From assembly GCA_963704755.1 (NCBI GenBank), contig OY969938.1, forward strand, positions 4,500,001 through 4,532,000: a DNA stretch of 32,000 nucleotides, read 5' to 3'. Positions 3,011 through 30,823 of this stretch are shown here, piece after piece. The position numbers were made by a program, and so were the translations under genes. Position 1 is the first letter of the stretch. Every line of letters begins with the position of its first letter. The notes under the pieces are model-generated. The model was not told the origin of the DNA and searched no databases. It saw nothing but the letters and a program-made list of their open reading frames with translations. Source of the DNA: an uncultured Chloroflexia bacterium. Lineage in GTDB: Bacteria; Chloroflexota; Anaerolineae; Anaerolineales; Anaerolineaceae.

Positions 3011-4288
3011 ATGGAAAATAAACAGGTCAAACGAACCAGCGTTTTTCAAAAAATCCGCACCAACTTGTCGTTGGCCAGCGCCAACGACCGGGCAACCTTC
3101 TCGTTTTTCTATTTCCTGGTTGTGATTCTGACGGGCATTGCAGTTTGGTCGATGATTGCTTCCCCCAAGCTAAAGCAGCCCGTTTATTGGGTGCCCTTCG
3201 TTATCCTGAACCTGGTCCACCTGGTGCTGCACTGGTCGATCATCGGGTTTCAATATAAGCCATCCCAGTACATTGTTTACATTGTTGGCCAAGGTGCACT
3301 GGTATTCGCCATCTGTGGTTTGAGTGGGATGCCATACATCAGCTATGGGCTGTTTATGGCTTTGATCGGTGAAGCGATGGGGATGTTCAGCACCACTTCG
3401 CGGAAGACCGTGGCAGTGTTGTTCTACCTGGTGCTGTCGCTGCTGACGTACTACGTCTTTATGCCGGAAACGGATTTGTTAGGCTGGCTTTTGCCGTTCG
3501 TGCCCATGACCTTGTTTGTGATCATTTACGTGAACCTGTATCTCAAGCAGATCGGTGCCCGCATGCAGGCCCAAAAACTTAGCCGCGAGCTGGAGCAGGC
3601 CAACCGGCAGTTATCGGACTATGCCGCCCAGATCGAGCAGTTGACCCTGAACGCCGAACGCCAGCGGATTGCCCGGGAGCTGCACGATTCGCTTTCAGCG
3701 GGGCTGGCCGGGACCATTTTGCAGCTTGAGGCAGCCGATACCTACCTGACGGCCGGAAATACCGAACGCGCTCAAGTGATCGTTAACCACACCATGGAAC
3801 GCGCCCGCTCGGCTCTGGCAGACGCACGCCGGATGATCGACCAGTTACGCTCGGGCAACCGCCTGGGGATCGACCTGTATGATTATTGCCAGAAAGAGGC
3901 CCGGCGGCTGCGCGAATCCGTCGGGATCAATTGCACCCTGGAAATGGATGAGGATTTGGAAATCCCCGAAGAATTAGCCGAAGCGCTTTATCGTATTGTG
4001 GGTGAGGGCATCAGCAATATCGAGCGGCACTCCAAGGCGAAAAACTGCCAGGTGCGAATTAAAGAAAACAAGGGCCAGCTGCTGATCGAGATCGAAGATG
4101 ACGGGGTGGGTTTCGATCCGGCGGTCAAGGTGGGCGAACAGGGCCACTATGGGCTGGTGGGGATCAAAGAACGGGCCCGGTTCGCGCATGGACAGGCTGA
4201 GATTCACAGCCTGGCTGGAAAAGGGAGCTTCCTGCGTATAGTCATTCCAATCCAACCGGCCAGACTCGAATCAAAGGGGGCGCACTGA
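3011..4288 (+). CDS. sensor histidine kinase, HisKA_3 (NarX/LiaS-like) family, intramembrane-sensing architecture
   Basis: About 170 aa of consecutive hydrophobic segments with no large external loop, then a coiled coil. H-box ERQRIARELHDSLSAGL, N-box ISNIERHS, G-boxes EDDGVGFD and GLVGIKER. The stop abuts the regulator start (TGAATG). Confidence 0.9.
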   Translation: MENKQVKRTSVFQKIRTNLSLASANDRATFSFFYFLVVILTGIAVWSMIASPKLKQPVYWVPFVILNLVHLVLHWSIIGFQYKPSQYIVYIVGQGALVFAICGLSGMPYISYGLFMALIGEAMGMFSTTSRKTVAVLFYLVLSLLTYYVFMPETDLLGWLLPFVPMTLFVIIYVNLYLKQIGARMQAQKLSRELEQANRQLSDYAAQIEQLTLNAERQRIARELHDSLSAGLAGTILQLEAADTYLTAGNTERAQVIVNHTMERARSALADARRMIDQLRSGNRLGIDLYDYCQKEARRLRESVGINCTLEMDEDLEIPEELAEALYRIVGEGISNIERHSKAKNCQVRIKENKGQLLIEIEDDGVGFDPAVKVGEQGHYGLVGIKERARFAHGQAEIHSLAGKGSFLRIVIPIQPARLESKGAH

Positions 4289-4975
4289 ATGAGCCAATCG
4301 ATCCGCATTTTGATTTGTGATGACCACCAGATCGTCCGCGAAGGTCTGCGGCTGATTTTAGAGACGGTGGCGGACTTCGAAGTGGTTGGTGAGGCGGTCG
4401 ATGGGGGCGAGGCCCTGGTGATGTCGGCTGAAACCCATCCGGATGTGGTTCTGATGGACCTGCGCATGCCCGGCATGGACGGATTGACTGCCCTGGAGCG
4501 ACTGCACGAGACTGACCCGCTCGTAGCGGTAGTGATCCTGACCACTTATAATGAGGACGAGTTGATGCTGCGCGGCCTGCAATTAGGCGCACGCGGCTAC
4601 CTGCTCAAAGATACCGGCCGGCAGGCTCTGTTCAATTCGATCCGGGCGGCGGCGCACGGGGAGACCCTGCTCAAACCGGAGTTTCTGGCGCGCATGCTGG
4701 TCCCACGCGAGACGGCTCCTGTCCAAAAACCACCGGCGGCCAGTCTGCCGGCTGACCCGAACGGCTGCCTGACCGAACGCGAAATGGAAGTGCTGGTCGC
4801 CGCGGCGCGGGGGGAGCGTAGTAAAGAGATCGCGCTGAATTTGAGCATCAGCGAGCGCACGGTCAAGGCCCACCTGGCCAGCATTTATAACAAATTGGGG
4901 GTCGATTCGCGCGCTGCAGCAATTGCCGTGGCGGCGCAAAGGGGCTGGCTGGGAACAGATCCCCAGCAGTTATAA
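4289..4975 (+). CDS. response regulator, NarL/LuxR (FixJ) family
   Basis: Receiver motifs ILICDDHQIVREGL and DVVLMDLRMPGMDG. C-terminal LuxR-type HTH LTEREMEVLVAAARGERSKEIALNLSISERTVKAHLASIYNKLGV. Confidence 0.95.
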   Translation: MSQSIRILICDDHQIVREGLRLILETVADFEVVGEAVDGGEALVMSAETHPDVVLMDLRMPGMDGLTALERLHETDPLVAVVILTTYNEDELMLRGLQLGARGYLLKDTGRQALFNSIRAAAHGETLLKPEFLARMLVPRETAPVQKPPAASLPADPNGCLTEREMEVLVAAARGERSKEIALNLSISERTVKAHLASIYNKLGVDSRAAAIAVAAQRGWLGTDPQQL

Positions 4976-5098
4976 TTTAATGTGAGTTCGGGATAAAAGA
5001 AAAGAGAGGTAATTTGAGTATGTTTTTATTTGTGGCTGCGCAGCCGCCACGAATAAAAACATACTCAAAAACTCTCATCTCGAACTGACGTTAATTTA
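4973..5098. repeat. hairpin repeat H1 inside a ~126-bp imperfect foldback
   Basis: Core: 5013-5030 TTTGAGTATGTTTTTATT pairs perfectly with 5052-5069. The inner 5031-5039/5043-5051 adds 7 pairs plus one G-T and one mismatch, with loop GCA. Outer inverted repeats: GAGAG 5004-5008 / CTCTC 5072-5076, and TAATTTAATGTGAGTTCG 4973-4990 versus the reverse complement of 5081-5098 (15/18). Confidence 0.9.
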
Positions 5099-5117
5099 TT
5101 AATGATATTGCTCTGGT

Positions 5118-5146
5118 TTGAATGTAGGGTAAATTTGCTGTACTAT
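5118..5146 (+). promoter_or_regulatory. sigma70-like promoter for the antitoxin-like gene
   Basis: TTGAAT (5118-5123), 17-nt spacer, TACTAT (5141-5146). It sits 19 nt upstream of the ATG, with AGGAGAG in between. Confidence 0.45.
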
Positions 5147-5165
5147 ATACGGCAGGAGAGCTGTT

Positions 5166-5414
5166 ATGGAAAAAGCCAGGCTGACCGTTCAAGTTCCACG
5201 TGACCTTTTGGAGAATGCCAAACGTTACGCGGCTCAAAACAACACCACCCTCACTGAACTAATCAGTGCCTACCTTCAACGCATCCCAGCCCAGCGTTCG
5301 TTAGAAAATGCCCCCATCGTGCGCCGATTAAGCGGCATCTTATCCCCTGAGATAGGTGTACAGGAGTACAAAAACCACCTTGAAGAAAAAAATCGGGTGC
5401 CTATCCGAAAATAG
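5166..5414 (+). CDS. ribbon-helix-helix (CopG/VapB-like) antitoxin-like protein with no adjacent toxin gene
   Basis: 82 aa. N-terminus ARLTVQVPRDLLENAKRYAAQNNTTLTELISAYLQRI fits a strand-helix-helix pattern. The C-terminal tail PIVRRLSGIL...EYKNHLEEK resembles tails of PIN-associated antitoxins as I recall them. AGGAGAG lies 5 nt upstream. Confidence 0.55.
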   Translation: MEKARLTVQVPRDLLENAKRYAAQNNTTLTELISAYLQRIPAQRSLENAPIVRRLSGILSPEIGVQEYKNHLEEKNRVPIRK

Positions 5415-5457
5415 TTTTGGTTGATTGTTTGTAACCGTTCAGCCTGATGGGTATAAA

Positions 5458-5511
5458 CCCGAATTTGAGGTGCATGCATGGGCGAAGCCATGCATACACC
5501 TCAAATTCGGG
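5458..5511. repeat. hairpin repeat H2
   Basis: 5458-5481 CCCGAATTTGAGGTGCATGCATGG pairs with 5488-5511. This gives 24 bp with one C-A mismatch (5473/5496) and loop GCGAAG. It is followed by ACCTTTT. Confidence 0.9.
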
Positions 5512-5562
5512 ACCTTTTAACCCGGGCCAGAGTTGTTACGAATTATAGGTATATGAGGAATT

Positions 5563-6228
5563 ATGGACAGAGAACTTTGGACCGCAGTGGACCGGTACCT
5601 CAAAGAATATCTGACTCCACCGGACCCGGCGCTGGAAAATGCCTTGCAGACCTCTGCCAGGGCCGCTTTCCCGGCCATTCAGGTAACCCCCACCCAGGGC
5701 AAGCTTTTGTATGTGCTGGCGAAGTCGATCCAGGCCCGCTCGATCCTCGAGATTGGCACATTGGGCGGCTACAGTACAATCTGGTTGGCGCGCGCATTGC
5801 AGCCGGGCGGCAGGCTGATCAGTCTGGAAGCTGACCCGGAACATGCCCGGGTAGCCCGCGGCAACCTGGAAGTGGCCGGTTTATCGGCTCAGGTAGAAAT
5901 CCGCCTGGGGAAAGGGCTGGAGAGCCTGCCCAAACTGGCCGAGGAGACCAGCGAACCATTTGACCTGGTGTTCATCGACGCGGATAAGGTGAATACCACG
6001 GCCTATTTCGAATGGGCAGTGAAACTGACCCGGCCGGGCGGGCTGATCCTGGTCGATAACGTCATCCGGCAAGGCAAGCTCATCGACGCGGCCAGCGACG
6101 ATCCTAATGTGCTGGGTATGCGCCGTTTTTTGGAGCACCTCGGCCGCGAAAAGCGGGTCAGCGCGACCGTGGTCCAGACCGTAGGTGAAAAAGATTACGA
6201 CGGGTTTGCGATCGCAGTTGTGAGTTAA
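5563..6228 (+). CDS. class I SAM-dependent O-methyltransferase (caffeoyl-CoA OMT / YrrM-like)
   Basis: SAM-binding LEIGTLGGYSTIWLA, ISLEAD, FDLVFIDADK, LILVDNV. GAGG lies 4 nt upstream of the ATG. Confidence 0.9.
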   Translation: MDRELWTAVDRYLKEYLTPPDPALENALQTSARAAFPAIQVTPTQGKLLYVLAKSIQARSILEIGTLGGYSTIWLARALQPGGRLISLEADPEHARVARGNLEVAGLSAQVEIRLGKGLESLPKLAEETSEPFDLVFIDADKVNTTAYFEWAVKLTRPGGLILVDNVIRQGKLIDAASDDPNVLGMRRFLEHLGREKRVSATVVQTVGEKDYDGFAIAVVS

Positions 6229-6328
6229 ATCCAGTCCGGAAATGAAGGCTGGCCGACCGAAAGCAAGATTTTCACCGATAGCCTTCTGTTTCATTGGAAA
6301 ATAGTGGCTATTCGGGTTGTTTAGACTT

Positions 6329-6390
6329 AAGGAGTGTTTTCATTATTTCGCGTGCTTAGCACGCGAAATAATGAAAACACTCCTTTTTTT
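6329..6390 (+). terminator. hairpin repeat H3, acting as an intrinsic terminator after the O-methyltransferase gene
   Basis: 27-bp perfect stem 6329-6355 / 6359-6385 (AAGGAGTGTTTTCATTATTTCGCGTGC), loop TTA. It is followed by TTTTT (6386-6390) and sits between convergent genes. Confidence 0.7.
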
Positions 6391-6515
6391 AAATCGCCGA
6401 GTAGTTGCAAAAAATTGGCTCAAAACAACCCTGAGTTCTGGCGGCCTTGACACGGGCAATTTCGCTGTGGACCGGCAGGAAAACAACCGGTGAGTTTGAA
6501 TGAAATAAGGGCGTA

Positions 6516-8063
6516 TCAAATCTCCCCTAGGATGTCCTCGACCGTATTCTTGGCCCAGTATACGGTCTGCCCCTGGCGCGATAATCTGCGGATGCCATCC
6601 AGGTGGTTGCCCAAGGTGATGATAGCGGGCTCTTCAGCCAGCTCGCCCGACTGGCTGCCCACCTGCCCAAGTCCCACACCTGCCAGCAGCCCGTTGCAAA
6701 GGCAGCGTTTCCCCTCGGTGTTGAAGGGTAAGCCGCGCTTGCTGATAAAATCGTCGATGGGCGAGGCCGGGCAGCGTTGGAACAGTTGGCGCGATCCATC
6801 CGCATCAGGTTTGCTCAACCCGCGCTGTTTCAGGAATCCAAGATCACAAATTTTGCGGCGGTCGGCGTAGACCGATTGGTCCGCCAGGGTACCTTCGAGT
6901 TGTACCACCTTGAACGGGAACCCGGTTGGAGAATAGAGCGAGGTCTGCACCAGGGCTGCATCGCTGGCTCCCTTTTTTAATTCCTTGAAAATCGCGCTGC
7001 GATAAACCGGGCTCAGTCCCAATTCCTCTGCCAGGGCAAATATGGAGCCGGCCTGCACGCCGGCGGCTCCGGCGTCGAGCGCTTTTTGTAACCCGGCGCG
7101 GCTGCCGTAACCGCCAGCCAGCCAGAAGGGCAGCCCTTCCTTTCGAATGGCAGCAAGGTCGGGCTCGTCCAACTCACTATACTGTGGCTGCCCCAGGTCG
7201 TCCTTTTTCATGGGGCCCTGGGGGGCCGCATTATGACCGCCGGCAGTATGGTGCTCGATGATAAAGCCATCCGGCGGCTGGTTCGGGCTTTGGGCAAGAG
7301 CTTTGACCAATCCCTCCAGCGAAACAATTGCCAGAAAAGCCGGGCATTTGAGCGGCTTTTGGGCCAGCTTGCCTGCCGCGATCTGGTGCGGATCGAAAAA
7401 CAGGTTAAAGGTCTCGCCCGAGTCGCGATATAAAACAGATAACTCACTGGTCACAGGTTGGTGCTGTGCCAGTTGGGAACAAAGACCGGGTAAACCCTCA
7501 GGATTGCCGGCGCCTACCACGATTCCATCTACCCCGGCCAGCATTGCGCCATACATGGCGAAAATCAAGGGAAGTTCAACTTTTTTCAAGAAATTGATAA
7601 AAATATTGCCCGGGTGGCCTTCTTTGGCCAGCCAAACCTCGGCGAAGCCGGTAACAATCAATAGTTCAGCCAGGTCTTCATCCAGTGTGAAGTTGATCGG
7701 GTCTGCATCTTTGACCGGAGCAGGGAAGGAACGGGTGCCATCCTGTGTACGCAGGGTCTGGGTTGGCCCATACTTGAAGCGGTTTGCCGGTGATTTACCG
7801 CCGGCGATGAAATAGCGCTCACAAATCTTTTTGCCGATATCGACGCCAAATTGTGCATCAAAAGCGGCATATGCACGGCGCAAGTGTCCGCCGGGATCGC
7901 CAAGTTGGAGGAGGCGTACGTGCACCACATCCAGGGCTGTACCTGAAATCGTTCCTGCGGTGATGCCTGGCTTTTCCATCGCAACCGCTTTTGCCAGGCG
8001 CCAGTTGGAAACGTAAACCCCCATACCACCCTGAATGAGTTTGATGTCCTGCAAGAATGTCAT
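6516..8063 (-). CDS. NMO (nitronate monooxygenase / 2-nitropropane dioxygenase, FabK-like) family flavoprotein
   Basis: N-terminal GGMGVYVSNWRLAKAV, then IIEHHTAGGHN and GAAGVQAGS, typical of the NMO TIM-barrel family. I start at M49 of the track ORF (complement of 8061-8063) because GGAG lies 6 nt upstream. The longer ORF would be translated through hairpin H4. Confidence 0.8.
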   Translation of the reverse strand: MTFLQDIKLIQGGMGVYVSNWRLAKAVAMEKPGITAGTISGTALDVVHVRLLQLGDPGGHLRRAYAAFDAQFGVDIGKKICERYFIAGGKSPANRFKYGPTQTLRTQDGTRSFPAPVKDADPINFTLDEDLAELLIVTGFAEVWLAKEGHPGNIFINFLKKVELPLIFAMYGAMLAGVDGIVVGAGNPEGLPGLCSQLAQHQPVTSELSVLYRDSGETFNLFFDPHQIAAGKLAQKPLKCPAFLAIVSLEGLVKALAQSPNQPPDGFIIEHHTAGGHNAAPQGPMKKDDLGQPQYSELDEPDLAAIRKEGLPFWLAGGYGSRAGLQKALDAGAAGVQAGSIFALAEELGLSPVYRSAIFKELKKGASDAALVQTSLYSPTGFPFKVVQLEGTLADQSVYADRRKICDLGFLKQRGLSKPDADGSRQLFQRCPASPIDDFISKRGLPFNTEGKRCLCNGLLAGVGLGQVGSQSGELAEEPAIITLGNHLDGIRRLSRQGQTVYWAKNTVEDILGEI

Positions 8064-8082
8064 ATTTTGCTCCATAGCGCAA

Positions 8083-8112
8083 TTATTAAAGTGTCTAACA
8101 CCAAGCTGGCAA
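8083..8112 (-). promoter_or_regulatory. possible promoter of the NMO-family gene
   Basis: On the minus strand: TTGCCA (8107-8112), 18 nt, TAATAA (8083-8088). This would give a very short leader carrying the GGAG. Confidence 0.3.
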
Positions 8113-8159
8113 CCAGGGTGTGGAGGTAATGAGGGTCTTTGAAATTTGTCGTAAAGAAT

Positions 8160-8214
8160 CCTATATTTGGGAGTGTGCGTGCGGAGGAGCCGCACGCACA
8201 CTCCCAAATATAGG
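8160..8214. repeat. hairpin repeat H4
   Basis: 25-bp perfect stem 8160-8184 CCTATATTTGGGAGTGTGCGTGCGG / 8190-8214, loop AGGAG. There is no T-tract on either strand. Confidence 0.9.
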
Positions 8215-8305
8215 CCCTCGCCGCAGCGATTCCCATTGAGCCGGTAATTATGAGCGAGCTGAAGACGCCAGTTTTTATCAAAATAGAGAATTGCTTTGGA
8301 ATCGT

Positions 8306-8371
8306 AAAAAAATAGGGGTATTTTATTGTTTTTCGCGTGCGAAGCACGCGAAAAACAATAAAATACCCCTA
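8306..8371 (-). terminator. hairpin repeat H5, acting as the intrinsic terminator of cysS
   Basis: 28-bp perfect stem 8313-8340 TAGGGGTATTTTATTGTTTTTCGCGTGC / 8344-8371, loop GAA. A7 at 8306-8312 gives T7 immediately 3' of the stem on the minus strand. It lies 64 nt downstream of the cysS stop. Confidence 0.75.
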
Positions 8372-8434
8372 AATTCCGAGTTGGCCGGGTTAGTAACTAG
8401 AAAAATAGTTGTGTGGTGAGACGCGAAAATTGTT

Positions 8435-9817
8435 CTACGCTTTCGCTTTCACTTTCGGCCCCTCGGGCGTGTCCATCACCTCGAAACCGGCTTCGCCGAT
8501 TTGGGTGCGCAGGGCGTCGGCGTCCTGCCAACGTTTTTCTTTGCGGGCAGCCTGGCGCTGTTCGACCAGTTCCAGTACATCCGTGGGGATGATTTCTTCC
8601 TTGGGCTGCCAGTTGGCCAGGTCGAACCCCAGGACTTTATCGAATTCGAGCAGGGTGGCTTTCTTGACTTCGGCCGGGAGAGCCGAATGGACCAGCTCCC
8701 AGGTTGTGGCCACCGCGCGGGGCATGTTGAGGTCGTCGTTGATGCACTCGCTGAATTTTTCGATGAATTCCGGATCGACCTGGCCGGGTTGGCCCCAGTC
8801 GTAGGCGGCGATGCGCAAGCGGTCCAGGGATTTGGCGGCCGCATCCAGGCTGTCCCAACTGAAATTCAGCTTCTGGCGGTAAATCGCGCTCAAGCAGAAC
8901 ATACGATATGCCAGGGGGTCGTAACCGTTGTCGATCAGGGTCTGCACGCGCAGGAATTCACCGGAGGACTTGGACATGCGGTTGTTTTCGTCCACCTGCA
9001 GGAAATAGCCGTGCAGCCAGAAGTTGGCCAGGCGGGTATTGTAGCAGGCCTCGGTCTGGGCAATCTCGTTGGTGTGATGCACGGTGATGTGGTCCTCGCC
9101 GCCGCAGTGGATATCGAAGAACGAGCCCAGGTATTTGGCCGACATGGCCGAACACTCGATGTGCCAGCCGGGGAACCCAATCCCCCAGGGGCTGTCCCAT
9201 TCCATCTGGCGCTTCTGGTCGGTCGGGCTGAACTTCCACAAGGCAAAGTCGGTTGAATTGTGCTTTTCGCCCATGTCTATGCGCGCGCCGGCCTGCAGGC
9301 CCTCGATGTCCAGCCGGCCCAAATAGCCGTAACTGGGCAGTTTGGCCGTGTCGAAGTAAATGCCATCCGAAGTGCGATAAGTGTAGCCATTTTTCTCGAT
9401 GCACTGCACAAAGGCGATTTGTTCTTGAATGTGGTCGGTGGCTTTACACCAGATGGTCGGCTCGATGATGTTCAAACGGGCCAAATCGTTGCGGAATTCC
9501 TGGGTGTAAAAGGCAGCAATTTCCCAGGCAGACTTGCCGGTCCGGCGCGAGCCGGCCTCCATTTTATCCTCTCCGGTATCGGCGTCCGAAACCAGGTGGC
9601 CCACGTCGGTGATGTTCATCACGTGCTTGACCTGGTACCCGTTGAAGGCCAGCGTGCGGCGCAAGATATCCTCGAAGATGTAGGTGCGCAGGTTGCCGAT
9701 GTGGGCGTAGTTGTACACGGTTGGCCCACAGGTGTACAGGCCGACTTCGGGTGCGTGCAACGGTTCGAACGCTCGCAAAGAGCGCGTGTAGGTATCGTAA
9801 AGGGTTAATGGCGACAT
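8435..9817 (-). CDS. cysS: cysteine--tRNA ligase
   Basis: 460 aa. Class I signatures HIGN ([12 protein letters not shown]) and KMSKS ([10 protein letters not shown]). AGGAGAAGG lies 5 nt upstream of the ATG. Confidence 0.97.
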
Positions 9818-9883
9818 TTTTGCCTTCTCCTAAGATTCGCCGGGCAAAAAAATCCCGGTAGGTTAACTAATTTTACACGATAA

Positions 9884-10242
9884 GAGTGAGGGAAGAAGAG
9901 AAAAGAGAATGGAGATTAGTTTATAAGGCAACGAGGGAATAAGAAAATGAGGGGTGAGGCAGCAGTTACATTGAGAATGTCAAACGAATTGTGTAAATGG
10001 ATTGCACACTAAAAACCCATTCGATTGGTCAAAGCGATCGGCCCGGTCTCCAGACCGAGGCCGCTCTTCCTGGCCGGCCAATAAGAGCGGCCTCGGTCTG
10101 GAGACCGGGCCGATCCACTTTAGGGCAAAGCGCTGGCTTACCGCGAAACCCTCTTCGCCTCATCAACTTGTTGCCTAATCGAACTCGGTGCCCAATCGAC
10201 TAATTTCTAATCTCTATTCTCTAATCTCTCTCTTCCTCCGCC
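9884..10242. repeat. ~360-bp nested imperfect foldback surrounding the 80-bp palindrome
   Basis: Collinear inverted matches: GAGAATGGAGATTAG 9905-9919 versus rc of 10207-10221 (14/15); AGGCAACGAG 9926-9935 versus rc of 10167-10176 (9/10); ATGAGGGGTGAGG 9947-9959 versus rc of 10150-10163 (ATGAGGCGAAGAGG). These surround the perfect core at 10036-10115. Confidence 0.7.
10036..10115. repeat. GC-rich 80-bp near-perfect palindrome
   Basis: 33-nt arms GATCGGCCCGGTCTCCAGACCGAGGCCGCTCTT (10036-10068) and the exact reverse complement (10083-10115). The 14-nt centre CCTGGCCGGCCAAT contains the self-complementary TGGCCGGCCA. Confidence 0.95.
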
Positions 10243-11782: not shown

Positions 11783-12023
11783 ACATTATCGAGGTTCTCA
11801 CCCCAAATATACCCGATCTTGTGCTGAAAAACGTCACTTAAAATGCGATAAATATGTGACATTAAAAAATCGGCCAGATTCCGGCCGGGAAATTGTCCCA
11901 TTTAATCAAGAGGCACTAAATACGGCGGGTATTGCTTAATGATCCCCTACATATTGGGGAATTTTTTCGCGTCGGGGCAGTGTGGAAGCGGGTTTAATTC
12001 TTAAATCAATTTGTAAATAATAC

Positions 12024-12052
12024 TTGCAAAACCTCCTCAAATCAGCTATACT
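12024..12052 (+). promoter_or_regulatory. dcw cluster promoter (Pmra-like)
   Basis: TTGCAA (12024-12029), exactly 17 nt, TATACT (12047-12052). It is directly followed by the GTGGN repeats. Confidence 0.6.
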
Positions 12053-12087
12053 GTGGGAGAAAGTGGAGAAAAGTGGGAGAAAGTGGT
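12053..12087 (+). promoter_or_regulatory. MraZ operator: four direct GTGGN repeats with 10-bp phasing
   Basis: GTGGG 12053-12057, GTGGA 12063-12067, GTGGG 12073-12077, GTGGT 12083-12087, each separated by an A/G-rich 5-mer (AGAAA/GAAAA). This matches the repeat-plus-5-nt-spacer layout known for MraZ binding upstream of mraZ. Confidence 0.65.
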
Positions 12088-12088
12088 T

Positions 12089-12114
12089 GGAACGCCGGTT
12101 GGGCCCGGCGTTCC
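12089..12114 (+). other. 10-bp GC-rich stem-loop in the mraZ 5' leader
   Basis: GGAACGCCGG (12089-12098) pairs with CCGGCGTTCC (12105-12114), loop TTGGGC. No T-tract. It lies 6 nt before the AAGGGAG ribosome-binding site. Confidence 0.5.
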
Positions 12115-12573: not shown

Positions 12574-13521
12574 ATGAATACCCCTACGGAAAACCGCGAG
12601 GAATATCCGCACCAACCTGTACTTTACCATGAAATTATACACGCTTTGATGCCACAAAGCCCAGGAAGGTACATCGACGCCACGGTTGGCGCCGGAGGAC
12701 ACGCCTGGGGAATACTTGAACAAAGTGCGCCGGACGGTCAATTATTGGCACTGGATCGTGACCCACAGGCGTTGGCATTGGCAAGCCGGCGTCTTTTTGA
12801 ATATCAACAGCGGGTCACTTTTGTTCATACTTCCTACACTCACCTGGGCGAAGAGCTTCAAAAACTGGGTTGGCCTGAAGTTCAAGGGATTGTTTTTGAC
12901 CTGGGGGTTTCTTCTATGCAGATTGATACCGCAATACGTGGTTTCTCATTCCTGGCTGAAGGACCTTTGGACATGCGCTTCGATCCCGATCAAAAGGAAA
13001 GCGCGGCCGACCTGGTGAATCACTTACCGGAGCAGGATCTGGCGAACCTGATCTGGCGCTACGGCGAGGAACGCTACAGTCGGCGAATTGCGCGGGCCAT
13101 TTGCCTGGCCAGGCCACTGGAGACGACCACTGAACTGGCCGAGGTAATTCGTAGAGCGGTAGGTGGCCAACGGGAACGCATCCATCCGGCGACCCGGACC
13201 TTCCAGGCGCTGCGCATCGCAGTCAACCAGGAGCTGATGTCCATCGAACAGGCTTTGCCTCAGGCAGTAGATGCATTGGCCGGCGGCGGCCGGCTGGCGG
13301 TCATTTCCTTCCACTCTATGGAGGACCGGATTGTCAAGCAGTTTTTCCGCCGGGAAAGCCGTGATTGTATCTGCCCACCGGAACAGCCGGTATGCACCTG
13401 CGGGCACAAAGCGTCTCTGCGAGAAATTACCCGGAAGCCAGTCCTTCCGGGGGCAGAAGAAATCGAGTCGAACTCACGCTCGCGCAGCGCGCGAATGAGG
13501 GTGGCTGAAAAATTAGCATAA
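12574..13521 (+). CDS. rsmH: 16S rRNA (cytosine1402-N4)-methyltransferase
   Basis: [42 protein letters not shown]. The ATG immediately follows the mraZ stop. Confidence 0.95.
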
Positions 13522-28498: not shown

Positions 28499-29653
28499 AT
28501 GGATATGCTAACTTCTTCTCAAGCCAAATCCTTTGCCCGCATCAAAGTTATTGGTGTGGGTGGTGGAGGATGTAATGCCGTCAACCGCATGATTGACGAA
28601 GGTCTGGGCGGCATCGAGTTCATTACAGTCAACACAGACGCTCAGGCGCTCTTGCTCTCCAAAGCTTCGGTCCGGGTGCGAATCGGCGACAAATCGACCC
28701 GCGGGCTGGGCGCCGGCGGCAACCCCGATATGGGCCGCAAAGCGGCCGAGGAATCCGCCGAGGAACTGTATGAAGTGCTCAAGGGCTCGGACATGGTCTT
28801 TGTGACCGCCGGCCTGGGCGGCGGCACCGGCACCGGCGCAGCTCCAATCGTGGCCCAGATTGCCAAAGAGGTCGGCGCGCTGACCATTGGCGTGGTCACC
28901 CGGCCGTTCACCTTCGAGGGTTCACGGCGGATGCAGTCGGCTGAATCCGGCATTTCCAAACTCAAAGAGCACGCCGATACGCTGATCGTCATTCCAAACG
29001 ACCGCCTGCTGCAAATTGTGGACAAGCGGGTCAGCCTGCAAGAGGCCTTTCGCACGGCGGACGACGTTCTGCGCCAGGGTATCCAGGGTATTTCGGAACT
29101 GATCACCGTGCCCGGTTTGATCAACCTGGACTTCGCCGACGTGCGCGCGATCATGTCCGAAGGCGGGGCCGCCTTGATGGCGGTTGGTTACGCCAGCGGC
29201 GAGGACCGCGCCCGGGTAGCCGCTGAAATGGCCATTTCCAGCCAACTGCTGGACATCACCATCGATGGCGCCCACGGTATTTTATTCAACGTCACCGGCG
29301 GCAACGGCATGACCTTGTTCGAGGTCAACCAGGCGGCGGCGATCATCAAGGAAACGGCCAGCCCGGATGTCAACCTGATCTTTGGTGCGGTGATCGACCC
29401 CAATATGGGCGAAGACATCCGCATCACGGTCATCGCGACCGGTTTCGACCGGGCCAGCAGCGTACGAATCCCTTTAGCGGAACAGCGCCCCGCCCCGAAG
29501 AAAGACGAAACTTATTCTTTCCCGGCGAGCAGCCAAAGCAACAGGGCTGAGCGGCCAGCGCCCGCTTCCTCGCCGACCGAATTTCAACCGACGGTCATCA
29601 ATACCAACGACCTGGACATTCCGGCTTTTCTGCGTAACCGTTCCCAACGATAA
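28499..29653 (+). CDS. ftsZ: cell division protein FtsZ
   Basis: [13 protein letters not shown], tubulin signature [13 protein letters not shown]-terminal peptide DIPAFLR. GGAGGA lies upstream. Confidence 0.98.
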
Positions 29654-29664
29654 AAATTTATTCG

Positions 29665-29696
29665 ATGGCATCCCGAGCAATCGGGATGCCATTTTA
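29665..29696 (+). terminator. intrinsic terminator of the dcw cluster
   Basis: 12-bp stem ATGGCATCCCGA (29665-29676) / TCGGGATGCCAT (29681-29692), GCAA tetraloop, then TTTT. It lies 12 nt after the ftsZ stop. Confidence 0.8.
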
Positions 29697-30162
29697 GATC
29701 GTTGGCAGTTTCTATCCGCTGAATTTGTTTATTGCTGGCGCAGGCCAGTTCTGGTCCGGCGGACCGGGGTTGAACCACGCCTGTTCCTGGCTTGTTGCCT
29801 GGGATGGAAGAAATTTTTATTGGTAGGCTAAGAACCTGTCTTGAGGAAGCCCTCTGGCGAAGTCGCGCGCCGGAGGGCTTCCGGGTTAATTGGGGGTGAT
29901 TCGGGCCATTTTTTTCGCCAATGGGGAGGCCGAATGACCAGAATTCTTTTAACATTTTAATAATTATTTTGGAAGCAAATTTCTTCGCCAAAAAATTAAA
30001 ATCCATCCCTGGGAAAACGCAAACCAAACTCAATTTATGACCACATCTGGGGATGGTTTTCGACGATTTAGCCGGCTGTTTGAGGATGCGAATAATGCTA
30101 TTTTTCACATAAAACATATGTTCTACGAGAATAATTTTAAGGTTAGATTCCGTTACCGGCTA

Positions 30163-30195: not shown

Positions 30196-30245
30196 ACCGT
30201 AAATATACGGTATATATATCCACATACCCCCACCTATGGGGGTAT
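30196..30245 (+). promoter_or_regulatory. two palindromes just downstream of the -10, candidate NrdR boxes
   Basis: ACCGTAAATATACGGT (30196-30211) and ATACCCCCA-CCTA-TGGGGGTAT (30224-30245). Centres are 31 bp apart, so 16-mers are separated by 15 bp. There is only a partial match to the AT-rich-centre NrdR box consensus. Confidence 0.3.
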
Positions 30246-30287
30246 ATTTGACCAAAGTAGAAAACTCAATTAGCAAGGAATTAAATA

Positions 30288-30373: not shown

Positions 30374-30823
30374 TTGCGTTGCCCTTATTGCCACAATGAA
30401 CAATCCAGGGTGATTGATACGACTCACGATGCAAGGGGAGGCGTAAGACGCCGCCGCGAATGTGAAAAGTGTAAGCAGCGTTTTTCGACTTACGAGCGGC
30501 CGATTTTGGCCACACCGCTGGTCGTAAAGCGCGATGGTACCCGCGAAGAGTTTGACCGGGAGAAGCTGATGCGCGGCATCCGCATCGCCTGCGCCAAACG
30601 GCCCGTCTCAGCGGCCGAGATCGACCGGCTGGTCGGTGAGATCGAATTGTCGCTGCAGCAAATGGGCCGGGCCGAAGTGTCTTCCCGTGTGATCGGCGAC
30701 ATGGTCATCGCCGGGTTGAAGGACCTGGATCTGCTGGCGTATATTCGCTATGCCATTGTTTATTTGCACTTGAACGATTTACATGCAATCCGCAAAGAAA
30801 TCGACCGGTTATTAGAAGTTTAA
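30374..30823 (+). CDS. nrdR: transcriptional repressor NrdR
   Basis: Zinc ribbon MRCPYCHN...CEKCKQRF followed by an ATP-cone ([20 protein letters not shown]). TTG start with GGGAGG upstream. Confidence 0.94.

Follow-up and report, generated by a model that had tools for sequence, protein, structure and literature searches.

What are the long, almost perfect hairpins that stand between genes in one part of an uncultured Chloroflexia genome, and what keeps their two arms identical? The question is raised by a 32-kb window (contig OY969938.1, positions 4,500,001 to 4,532,000), in which an initial inspection, hereafter the original prediction, had picked out five hairpins (H1 to H5) between the genes of a two-component system and cysS. 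The observation is real and the core idea is right: there is a hairpin family with mirrored changes in its arms, it brackets accessory genes, and it has copies elsewhere. We put the probability at about 0.55 that these are boundary elements, that is, long-stem intrinsic terminator or insulator hairpins of a dispersed, lineage-specific family in which a DNA-level process keeps both arms identical. Such very long perfect hairpins are typical of one Anaerolineae subclade, and we found no description of them in the literature on Anaerolineae or Chloroflexi.

The window is the part of the source genome covered here, and its relatives are represented by loci labelled L006, L007, L225, L228, L230, L231 and so on. 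The informative relatives (L228, L225, L230, and L231) were reached through homologues of the response regulator (RR). The window genes run in the order HisKA_3 kinase, LuxR-type RR, DUF6364, and O-methyltransferase (OMT), followed on the minus strand by an NMO-like oxidoreductase, cysS, and a class-V aminotransferase (AT5), and then by mraZ and the dcw cluster through ftsZ.

Hairpins in five consecutive intergenic regions

All five hairpins have the positions and the anatomy first described for them (Table 1), and their folds are significant against shuffled sequences. Each of H1 to H5 folds at -39 to -54 kcal/mol, and their z-scores range from -8 to -13 against dinucleotide shuffles. The inventory of five was incomplete, as a larger palindrome, P6, had been overlooked between the aminotransferase gene and cysS. 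The six structures occupy five consecutive intergenic regions (4976-10220), and the window holds seven hairpins of at least 12 bp as compared with ~0.6 in Markov-simulated windows. The other seven window gaps of more than 100 bp have only ordinary 12- and 15-bp hairpins (29665-29692 and 29845-29882), and a scan of the whole window agreed with the earlier remark that nothing comparable lies inside the dcw cluster. T-tracts occur only at H3 (plus strand) and H5 (minus strand), as had been reported, and a terminator scan calls both.

Two of the hairpins are the centers of larger structures. H1 lies at the core of a decayed palindrome of greater length, whose outer arms are at 4972-4994 and 5077-5099 (19/23, p=0.001); of these, the left one overlaps the RR stop codon and the other, its copy, faces the DUF6364 insert. 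H3 has an outer inverted repeat at 6314-6325 and 6420-6431 (11/12, p=0.01). In L228 the spacer that corresponds to that of P6 contains a different long, imperfect palindrome (12974-13040, -45 kcal/mol).

Table 1. Hairpins of the window and the two genes that they bracket
Feature	Position	Strand	Structure or assignment	Fold (kcal/mol)	Setting and tail
H1	5013..5069	.	Arms of 27 nt around loop GCA, 2 mismatches; alternatively 24 bp with a 9-nt apex	-39.5 (z=-11)	38 nt past RR stop, upstream of DUF6364 gene; no T-tract
H2	5458..5511	+	24 bp with one C.A mismatch		44 nt past DUF6364 stop; weak tail, ACCTTTTAA
H3 + T7	6329..6392	+	Perfect hairpin of 27-28 bp (6329-6385), then TTTTTTT	-45	Between convergent OMT (+) and NMO (-)
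H4	8160..8214	-	25-bp perfect hairpin	-53.8	99 nt downstream of H5, 97 nt upstream of NMO start; weak minus-strand tail, ATTCTTTAC
H5 + T7	8306..8375	-	28-bp perfect hairpin (8313-8371)	-47.7	64 nt past cysS stop
P6	10036..10115	-	GC-rich palindrome, 40-nt arms with 2 mismatches, no loop	-87 (z=-13)	106 nt past aminotransferase stop, 219 nt upstream of cysS
DUF6364 (antitoxin-like) gene	5166..5414	+	Pfam PF19891, E=1.8e-16		Bracketed by H1 and H2
NMO-like flavin oxidoreductase gene	6516..8063	-	Pfam NMO		H3 on 3' side, H4 on 5' side

The relatedness of the hairpins was assessed by comparing arm similarity with composition-preserving shuffles. H3 and H5 are clearly related (z=5.7-5.8, p<=0.001), H2 and H4 are probably related (z=3.5, p=0.007), and H1 is marginal (p=0.04 to H3 and p=0.08 to H5; a singleton at z>=3). 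No other pair of window hairpins reached significance in these shuffles, and P6 is unrelated to H1-H5. H1 to H5 do not make up a single homogeneous family, and the proposal that all are clearly related stands for the first of these pairs and, less firmly, for the second. The motif GRGTRT is found near the stem base in four of five window arms, as against 1 of 92 hairpins of at least 12 bp in 1.43 Mb of relatives. A search with nhmmer using an H3/H5 profile matched only H3 and H5 themselves, and MAFFT did not bring the arms into register when applied to H1-H5 alone. A 13-mer shared by P6 and cysS was rejected as meaningful, being within chance.

H3 on the plus strand aligns with H5 on the minus strand, including the loop (TTA/TTC) and the subsequent T7, while the flanks are unrelated. 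TTTCGCGTGC is common to the two. There are seven arm differences between them (two transitions, four transversions, and one indel), each mirrored on the opposite arm. The original prediction had stressed this mirroring for all copies. Any two unrelated hairpins show it trivially, but it is meaningful for H3 versus H5 and for the family across genomes.

A dispersed family and the symmetry of its arms

A covariance model (R1) was built from nine members. It finds 12 elements, located in the window, L007, L228, L230, and L231, and recognizes three that were outside the training set (H4, L231 9403, and L228 14641); in ~85 other loci it finds nothing below E=0.1. The scores are 57.7 bits for H3, 59.2 bits for H5, and 29.5 bits for H4 (E~1e-3). 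Judged by sequence, at least H3 and H5 belong to a family shared with four related genomes, and H4 belongs to it by the covariance model only. Clustering of arms at z>=3 likewise puts 10 members, drawn from five genomes, into a single group; H2 and H4 form a pair, and eight hairpins, H1 and P6 among them, are singletons. The expectation that a hairpin family with further copies exists is thus borne out.

The family consensus consists of a 5' arm with GGRGTRT, a T-run, and a GCGYGC apex, followed by a 3' arm that is the exact complement of the 5' arm and usually by a T-rich tail. Stems are 17-28 bp in length and are located at non-orthologous gene ends. H3 has arm similarities of z=5.9 to a hairpin of L231 (L231c, at 9403), with which it has AAGGAGTGTTTT in common, and of z=4.5 to one of L230 (L230a, 1020-1062). 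The latter, GTGGAGTGTTTTGCGCGTGC-gaa-..., sits after a cytochrome gene and joins the base of H3 to the exact apex of H5 (CGCGTGC-GAA-GCACGCG). L231 has AAGGAGTGTTTTTTCGTGC, which is the H3 arm less ~8 nt. Within 20 kb of its 2.75-Mb contig, L230 has four perfect hairpins of 20-25 bp and one of 17 bp with a single mismatch; these include GTGGGGTATTTTGGGCGGGC after alr and an H4-like hairpin after the RR gene. A hairpin follows RR in L230, L231, and L225 as well, and in L007 a 19-22 bp family member stands directly after cysS, in the position of H5. L228 has perfect hairpins of its own, one of 23 bp in the OMT/cysS spacer with TGTTTATTTC and one of 19 bp with the family layout. Two further L228 hairpins are a ~27-bp stem flanked by A5/T5 and another that is followed by T7.

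Long hairpins have a density of 1.9-2.9 per 10 kb in family-bearing genomes, as compared with 0.38 elsewhere. Two things coexist here: throughout the clade, intergenic regions have perfect hairpins of very great length, and about half of these hairpins belong to a single dispersed sequence family. The closest cysS relatives are from Anaerolineae, with Bellilinea caldifistulae at 80%; genomes at the level of Bellilinea and the closest NMO homologues have no long hairpins. Rfam gave no match at gathering thresholds.

The family also has features that resemble ribosome-binding sequences. The base of the 5' arm is similar to a Shine-Dalgarno (SD) sequence (AAGGAGTG / CACTCCTT, GAGGTG), the loop of H4 is AGGAG, and the 3' arm with its tail (ACACUCCUUUUUU) is reminiscent of the 16S rRNA 3' end with its anti-SD sequence. 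SD-like sites are found at window 6329-6340, 8174-8189, and 5464-5473, at L231 9403-9415, and at L230 1020-1030.

How do the arms stay identical? Across 20 hairpins, 440 of 447 stem pairs are Watson-Crick and 6 of 447 are of the G.T type on either strand, no more than are mismatched in other ways. Changes on both sides were seen for 13 of 18 pairs in the model alignment; 69 cells are two-sided and 5 one-sided, and 93% of cells are paired versus 73% after shuffling and 35-61% in slid controls, with the caveat that these counts include both strands of each palindrome and come from an alignment fitted to the model. Indels are mirrored too, by 1 nt between H3 and H5 and by ~8 nt between H3 and L231c or L230a. 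The second arm of H2 is absent from L225, and H1 and H3 are perfect cores within decayed outer inverted repeats. Taken together, the scarcity of wobble pairs and the mirroring of both indels and transversions argue for a DNA-level process that keeps the arms the same. REP (repetitive extragenic palindromic) elements and stems selected as RNA tolerate G.U pairs (PMC3733652), unlike the stems of the window and its clade. Arm homogenization, one of the explanations offered originally, is thus favored over RNA-level compensation alone, as judged from the pair statistics.

One arm was likely copied from the other by intramolecular template switching or hairpin-templated repair. Two reports (PMC8604942, PMC13100816) describe template switching as homogenizing and expanding the arms of inverted repeats. 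This quasipalindrome mutagenesis (PMC8604942, PMC13100816, PMC5453318) would explain the mirrored substitutions and indels. It would also explain perfect cores in decayed outer repeats and a second arm made from single-copy sequence, as in H2 versus L225. It is a mutational mechanism and not an element class, however, and alone it leaves the consensus and the placement at gene ends unexplained. Selection for function on both strands could be a further contributor to arm identity.

Apparent gene gains and transcription-unit ends

On the 605-kb contig of L228, the stretch that starts at the ABC transporter and reaches the dcw cluster is collinear with the window (cysS 86%, RR 74% at the amino acid level) and has neither DUF6364 nor NMO. 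Its RR-OMT gap is 20 bp where the window has H1-DUF6364-H2, and its OMT-cysS gap is 80 bp where the window has H3-NMO-H4-H5. Blocks of hairpins and genes are therefore present in the window and absent from the orthologous intergenic regions of L228. Because L228 lacks both genes, the window hairpins bracket two apparent lineage-specific insertions, DUF6364 and NMO, as expected from the proposal that they delimit accessory genes. L225 (RR 82%, ftsZ 95%) is also without DUF6364 and has an RR-OMT gap of 96 bp. Upstream of OMT it carries a single, unpaired ACCTCAAATTCGGG, which is the outer 14 nt of both H2 arms (1259-1272; blastn E=2e-4 locally and 0.056 in 1.48 Mb) and which adjoins an ordinary 6-bp terminator. 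When half-sites of the other arms were searched for in 1.48 Mb of relatives, this remained the sole positionally meaningful match.

The DUF6364 gene is solitary, without a partner toxin gene, and 148 bp including H2 lie between it and OMT. NMO is conserved widely among Anaerolineae. No hairpins flank the closest homologues of NMO (83%) and OMT (70%), and in the NMO homologue contexts L100-L104 there are other neighbors and no hairpins; the hairpins therefore do not travel with those genes. We also considered whether the 23-bp OMT/cysS hairpin of L228 was an ancestral terminator that was split by the NMO insertion, and dropped the idea because its similarity to the H5 and H3 arms is not significant (p=0.04-0.9). 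The alignment of L225 1-3283 to window 3719-6223 and 28857-29882 puts OMT convergent with ftsZ in L225, where the window and L228 have NMO/cysS. Such an arrangement implies that a large segment was inverted or otherwise rearranged, one of the breakpoints being in the OMT 3' spacer, the present site of H3.

What might such hairpins do at these sites? The window hairpins are located 38-131 nt past the stops of RR, DUF6364, OMT/NMO, cysS, and AT5, with the exception of H4, which comes after H5. In the relatives and the window, nearly all long hairpins lie 10-150 nt past stop codons, and most family members have T-rich tails. In form, H3 and H5 are canonical terminators, each a hairpin with T7 in the sense of the upstream gene (OMT and cysS, respectively). 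Where a hairpin separates convergent genes, both of its tails are T-rich, and in 11 unidirectional cases from five genomes the sense tails are the T-richer ones (4.5 vs 3.5 per 10 nt, p=0.04). At corresponding functional positions relatives have ordinary terminators or unrelated long hairpins; downstream of cysS, for example, L006, L015, and L016 have 9-bp+T terminators. A terminating role had been underrated. The terminator reading is stronger than was then allowed because H3 and H5 have the canonical form and because most members in relatives follow stops and have T-rich tails.

Once transcribed, a hairpin of this kind would stop RNA polymerase, block 3' exonucleases, or both. Since the palindromes are perfect on both strands, each could act on transcription from either side, and this two-sided action would insulate the newly juxtaposed DUF6364 and NMO genes from their neighbors. 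On this reading the window hairpins would be very strong and would work largely regardless of orientation. The closest working analogy would be the long-stem intrinsic terminator, as exemplified by TerR of plasmid pLS20. Typical terminators have stems of 7-9 bp, and the 15-bp stem of TerR, which gives antitermination resistance, has been termed extraordinarily long (PMC10325885). The TerR stem has a GC/AU/GC layout and a GAGUGC bottom (PMC10325885). As in TerR, the stems studied here are GC-rich at the bottom (GAGUGY), AU-rich in the middle, and GC-rich at the top; as in long-stem terminators generally, the hairpins follow soon after a stop codon, have short loops and, at H3 and H5, a U-tract, and can work between convergent genes. 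They differ from terminators in their stems of 24-28 bp (40 bp in P6), in the lack of a U-tract at several window hairpins, in the single consensus that many share across genes and genomes, and in the near-absence of wobble pairs.

Several observations weigh against reading the hairpins as terminators or insulators with arms maintained in DNA. A U-tract is missing from H1 and P6, and the tails of H2 and H4 are weak. The difference between sense and antisense tails is modest, and the covariation counts carry the caveat given above. Three clade hairpins are in divergent spacers without an annotated gene end (L228 8490, L228 14638, and L230 8627). In addition, the consensus appears conserved at non-orthologous sites, between genomes whose core proteins are 72-86% identical, to an extent that exceeds what a generic terminator needs, and this suggests active spread or a sequence-specific partner.

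Spread is central to a different account, in which the hairpins are selfish mobile palindromes similar to REPs or miniature inverted-repeat transposable elements (MITEs), propagated by a dedicated enzyme or by snap-back replication and terminating transcription only incidentally. In its favor, one conserved consensus recurs at non-orthologous sites in five genomes. The account is consistent as well with the presence of some copies in divergent spacers, with the perfection of each copy although copies differ mutually, and with a patchy distribution, the family being absent from L225 (despite ftsZ at 95% amino acid identity), L100, and L102-104. The 19-bp hairpin of L228 sits in a ~118-nt block that is missing from the otherwise alignable ABC/histidine kinase spacer of the window, with GAAC at both junctions; the GAAC could equally be deletion microhomology. 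In dispersed-family behavior the hairpins would resemble REPs, BIMEs, and REPINs, which RAYT transposases mobilize and which are likewise extragenic palindromes, mostly downstream of genes, in lineage-specific dispersed families with patchy distribution, and terminator or mRNA-stabilizer roles have been proposed for REPs. But REP elements have imperfect stems of 5-13 bp, often including G.T pairs, along with an unpaired GTAG or CGTC tag (PMC3733652), whereas the family stems (17-28 bp) are perfect, tagless, and 2-4 times as long, and no GTAG/CTAC or CGTC/GACG abuts H1-H5 or P6. The REP/RAYT reading of the original prediction therefore fails, on account of the missing tag and the far too long stems. 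MITEs are rejected because there are no consistent target-site duplications or direct repeats at the ends of H1-H5. Transposases (including Y1, RAYT, and IS200-IS605 type tnpA) and integrases were absent from the Pfam-scanned window open reading frames (ORFs), most dcw-cluster ORFs not having been scanned individually, and from the Pfam gene tables of L228, L230, and L231. About half of the long hairpins of the clade are unique sequences at similar positions. A scan of JGI metagenomes for the H3/H5 apex returned 19 unrelated short palindromes and no family, and a degenerate H3/H4/H5 pattern in viral contigs returned mostly one-strand chance matches and one look-alike (L191). We consider mobile palindromes a doubtful explanation. 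As a tentative idea, the hairpins might be self-symmetrizing palindromes, a new Anaerolineae class that is arm-copied at gene-gain junctions, spreads without a RAYT-type transposase, and is used by the host as orientation-independent terminators or insulators.

Independent, ordinary terminators that converged on a favorable stem design (GC bottom, AU middle, and GC top) could look alike without being related. The same three-part layout and a GAGUGC-type bottom are present in TerR, from an unrelated B. subtilis plasmid, L191 comes from a viral contig of unrelated composition, and half of the long hairpins are sequence singletons. Convergence is nevertheless unlikely, given identical 10-17-mers between copies (H3/H5, H5/L230a, and H3/L231c), arm similarities of z 4-6, the rarity of the GRGTRT motif in background hairpins (1/92), and stems 2-3 times longer than the functional need described in the literature. 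Chances are slimmer still that the hairpins are scars of fold-back (snap-back) synthesis at broken ends, made as DUF6364 and NMO were inserted and later tolerated or co-opted. That they bracket exactly the two inserted genes would follow naturally, as would the OMT-proximal H2 arm being the ancestral single copy in L225 with the DUF6364-proximal arm its inverted copy, the orientation of the outer H1 arms, and the breakpoint in the OMT 3' spacer of L225. Scars do not explain a consensus common to hairpins at unrelated sites in other genomes, a hairpin at the cysS end in both the window (H5) and L007, or T7 tails oriented with the upstream genes. RNase III substrates need roughly 20 bp at minimum, which perfect stems of 24-28 bp exceed, and the sole Rfam similarities are sub-threshold ones to generic long-hairpin (microRNA) precursors. 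With no Rfam family at threshold, and with wobble avoidance that an RNA-level function alone does not predict, dsRNA processing or stability elements or small-RNA precursors are a very improbable identity. Integron-like attC sites marking gene cassettes are effectively refuted. Small accessory genes each flanked by palindromes, one of them an orphan antitoxin-like gene of the kind typical of cassettes, had made that boundary role attractive. But no RYYYAAC/GTTRRRY (R'/R'') boxes are found at any hairpin end, the perfect stems have no extrahelical bases, and no integrase was detected among 20 Pfam-scanned window ORFs; moreover, the genes are in both orientations, NMO is widely conserved, and family members also follow the housekeeping genes cysS and alr. 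Inverted pairs of DNA uptake sequences (DUS) or uptake signal sequences (USS) act as terminators in Neisseria and Haemophilus, and the uptake words are strongly over-represented genome-wide, genes included. Such pairs are similar in that their arms carry one conserved DNA word, which produces perfect Watson-Crick symmetry and a sequence family. The uptake idea was rejected because the family motifs (GRGTRT, GGAGTGT, GTGTTTT, and CGCGTGC) are at chance level outside hairpins, with counts at Markov expectation in the window, L228, L231, and L007 and only GRGTRT mildly high in L230.

If the long-stem terminator or insulator reading is correct, then in a poorly studied, mostly uncultured class transcription units are delimited by hairpins 2-3 times longer than other described terminators, many of them derived from one sequence family. 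The covariance model would be ready for annotating operon ends in metagenome-assembled genomes of Anaerolineae. The hairpins would also offer a natural system in which to ask how bacteria come to have perfect DNA palindromes and keep them symmetrical, by template switching or by selection, and they would be candidate very strong, orientation-independent terminators for synthetic biology. Insertions bracketed by hairpins would also be relevant to the question of how a genome shields newly acquired genes from the genes around them.

Look-alikes, neighboring genes, and other repeats

The viral look-alike (L191 473-510; IMG/VR contig, GC 0.44) is a perfect 18-bp hairpin, GGGTGTTTTTGGCGTGCG-ct-CGCACGCCAAAAACACCC, with the family layout. 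It lies upstream of a HigA-like helix-turn-helix gene on an apparently unrelated contig and could be due to convergence or to horizontal spread. More distant Anaerolineae have a different kind of intergenic repeat, in which long hairpins arise from inverted arrays of ~7-nt units (GAGATTG, CGTAATC, GGTCATC, and GTGAGGC). These arrays are found in L044 (4215-4274), L051 (16186-16240 and 16899-16964), L058 (13177-13224), L016 (7269-7314), and L059 (11375-11427, 15065-15125, and 20773-20814).

Two smaller hairpins of the window lie toward its far end. A 15-bp hairpin with ~25 nt of flank (29822-29882) has one G.U pair on the ftsZ-sense strand and is 82% identical to L225 2146-2206. It is ~170-190 nt downstream of ftsZ in both and may be a conserved 3' untranslated region or small-RNA-like element, for which Rfam gave no match. 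The hairpin ACATACCCCCA-ccta-TGGGGGTATAT (30222-30247), ~125 nt upstream of nrdR (30374-30823), holds the GGGGTAT word of H5 with the arm order reversed.

The remaining repeats are close to gene starts and ends. The region upstream of mraZ (12019-12114) is nearly identical to L228 14768-14870, is also seen at L007 9333-9358, and has GTGG(G/A)AGA repeats in 10-nt phase that are probably the MraZ operator. A conserved 10-bp hairpin, GGAACGCCGG-ttgggc-CCGGCGTTCC, comes after these repeats, and the first-ATG start of the mraZ ORF at 12073 is probably too early. A 28-nt direct repeat, TTGAGA.TG.CAAACGA.TTGTGTAAAT, is found at 2617-2644 and 9971-9998 (89% identical), at or near the 5' ends of the minus-strand ABC ATPase and cysS genes, and may be a shared promoter or operator; its first copy is inside the listed ABC ATPase ORF (1731-2678). 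At 10157-10229, a tandem array of 17-nt x2.6 and 7-nt x4.3 (CTAATCT) repeats overlaps the aminotransferase stop codon.

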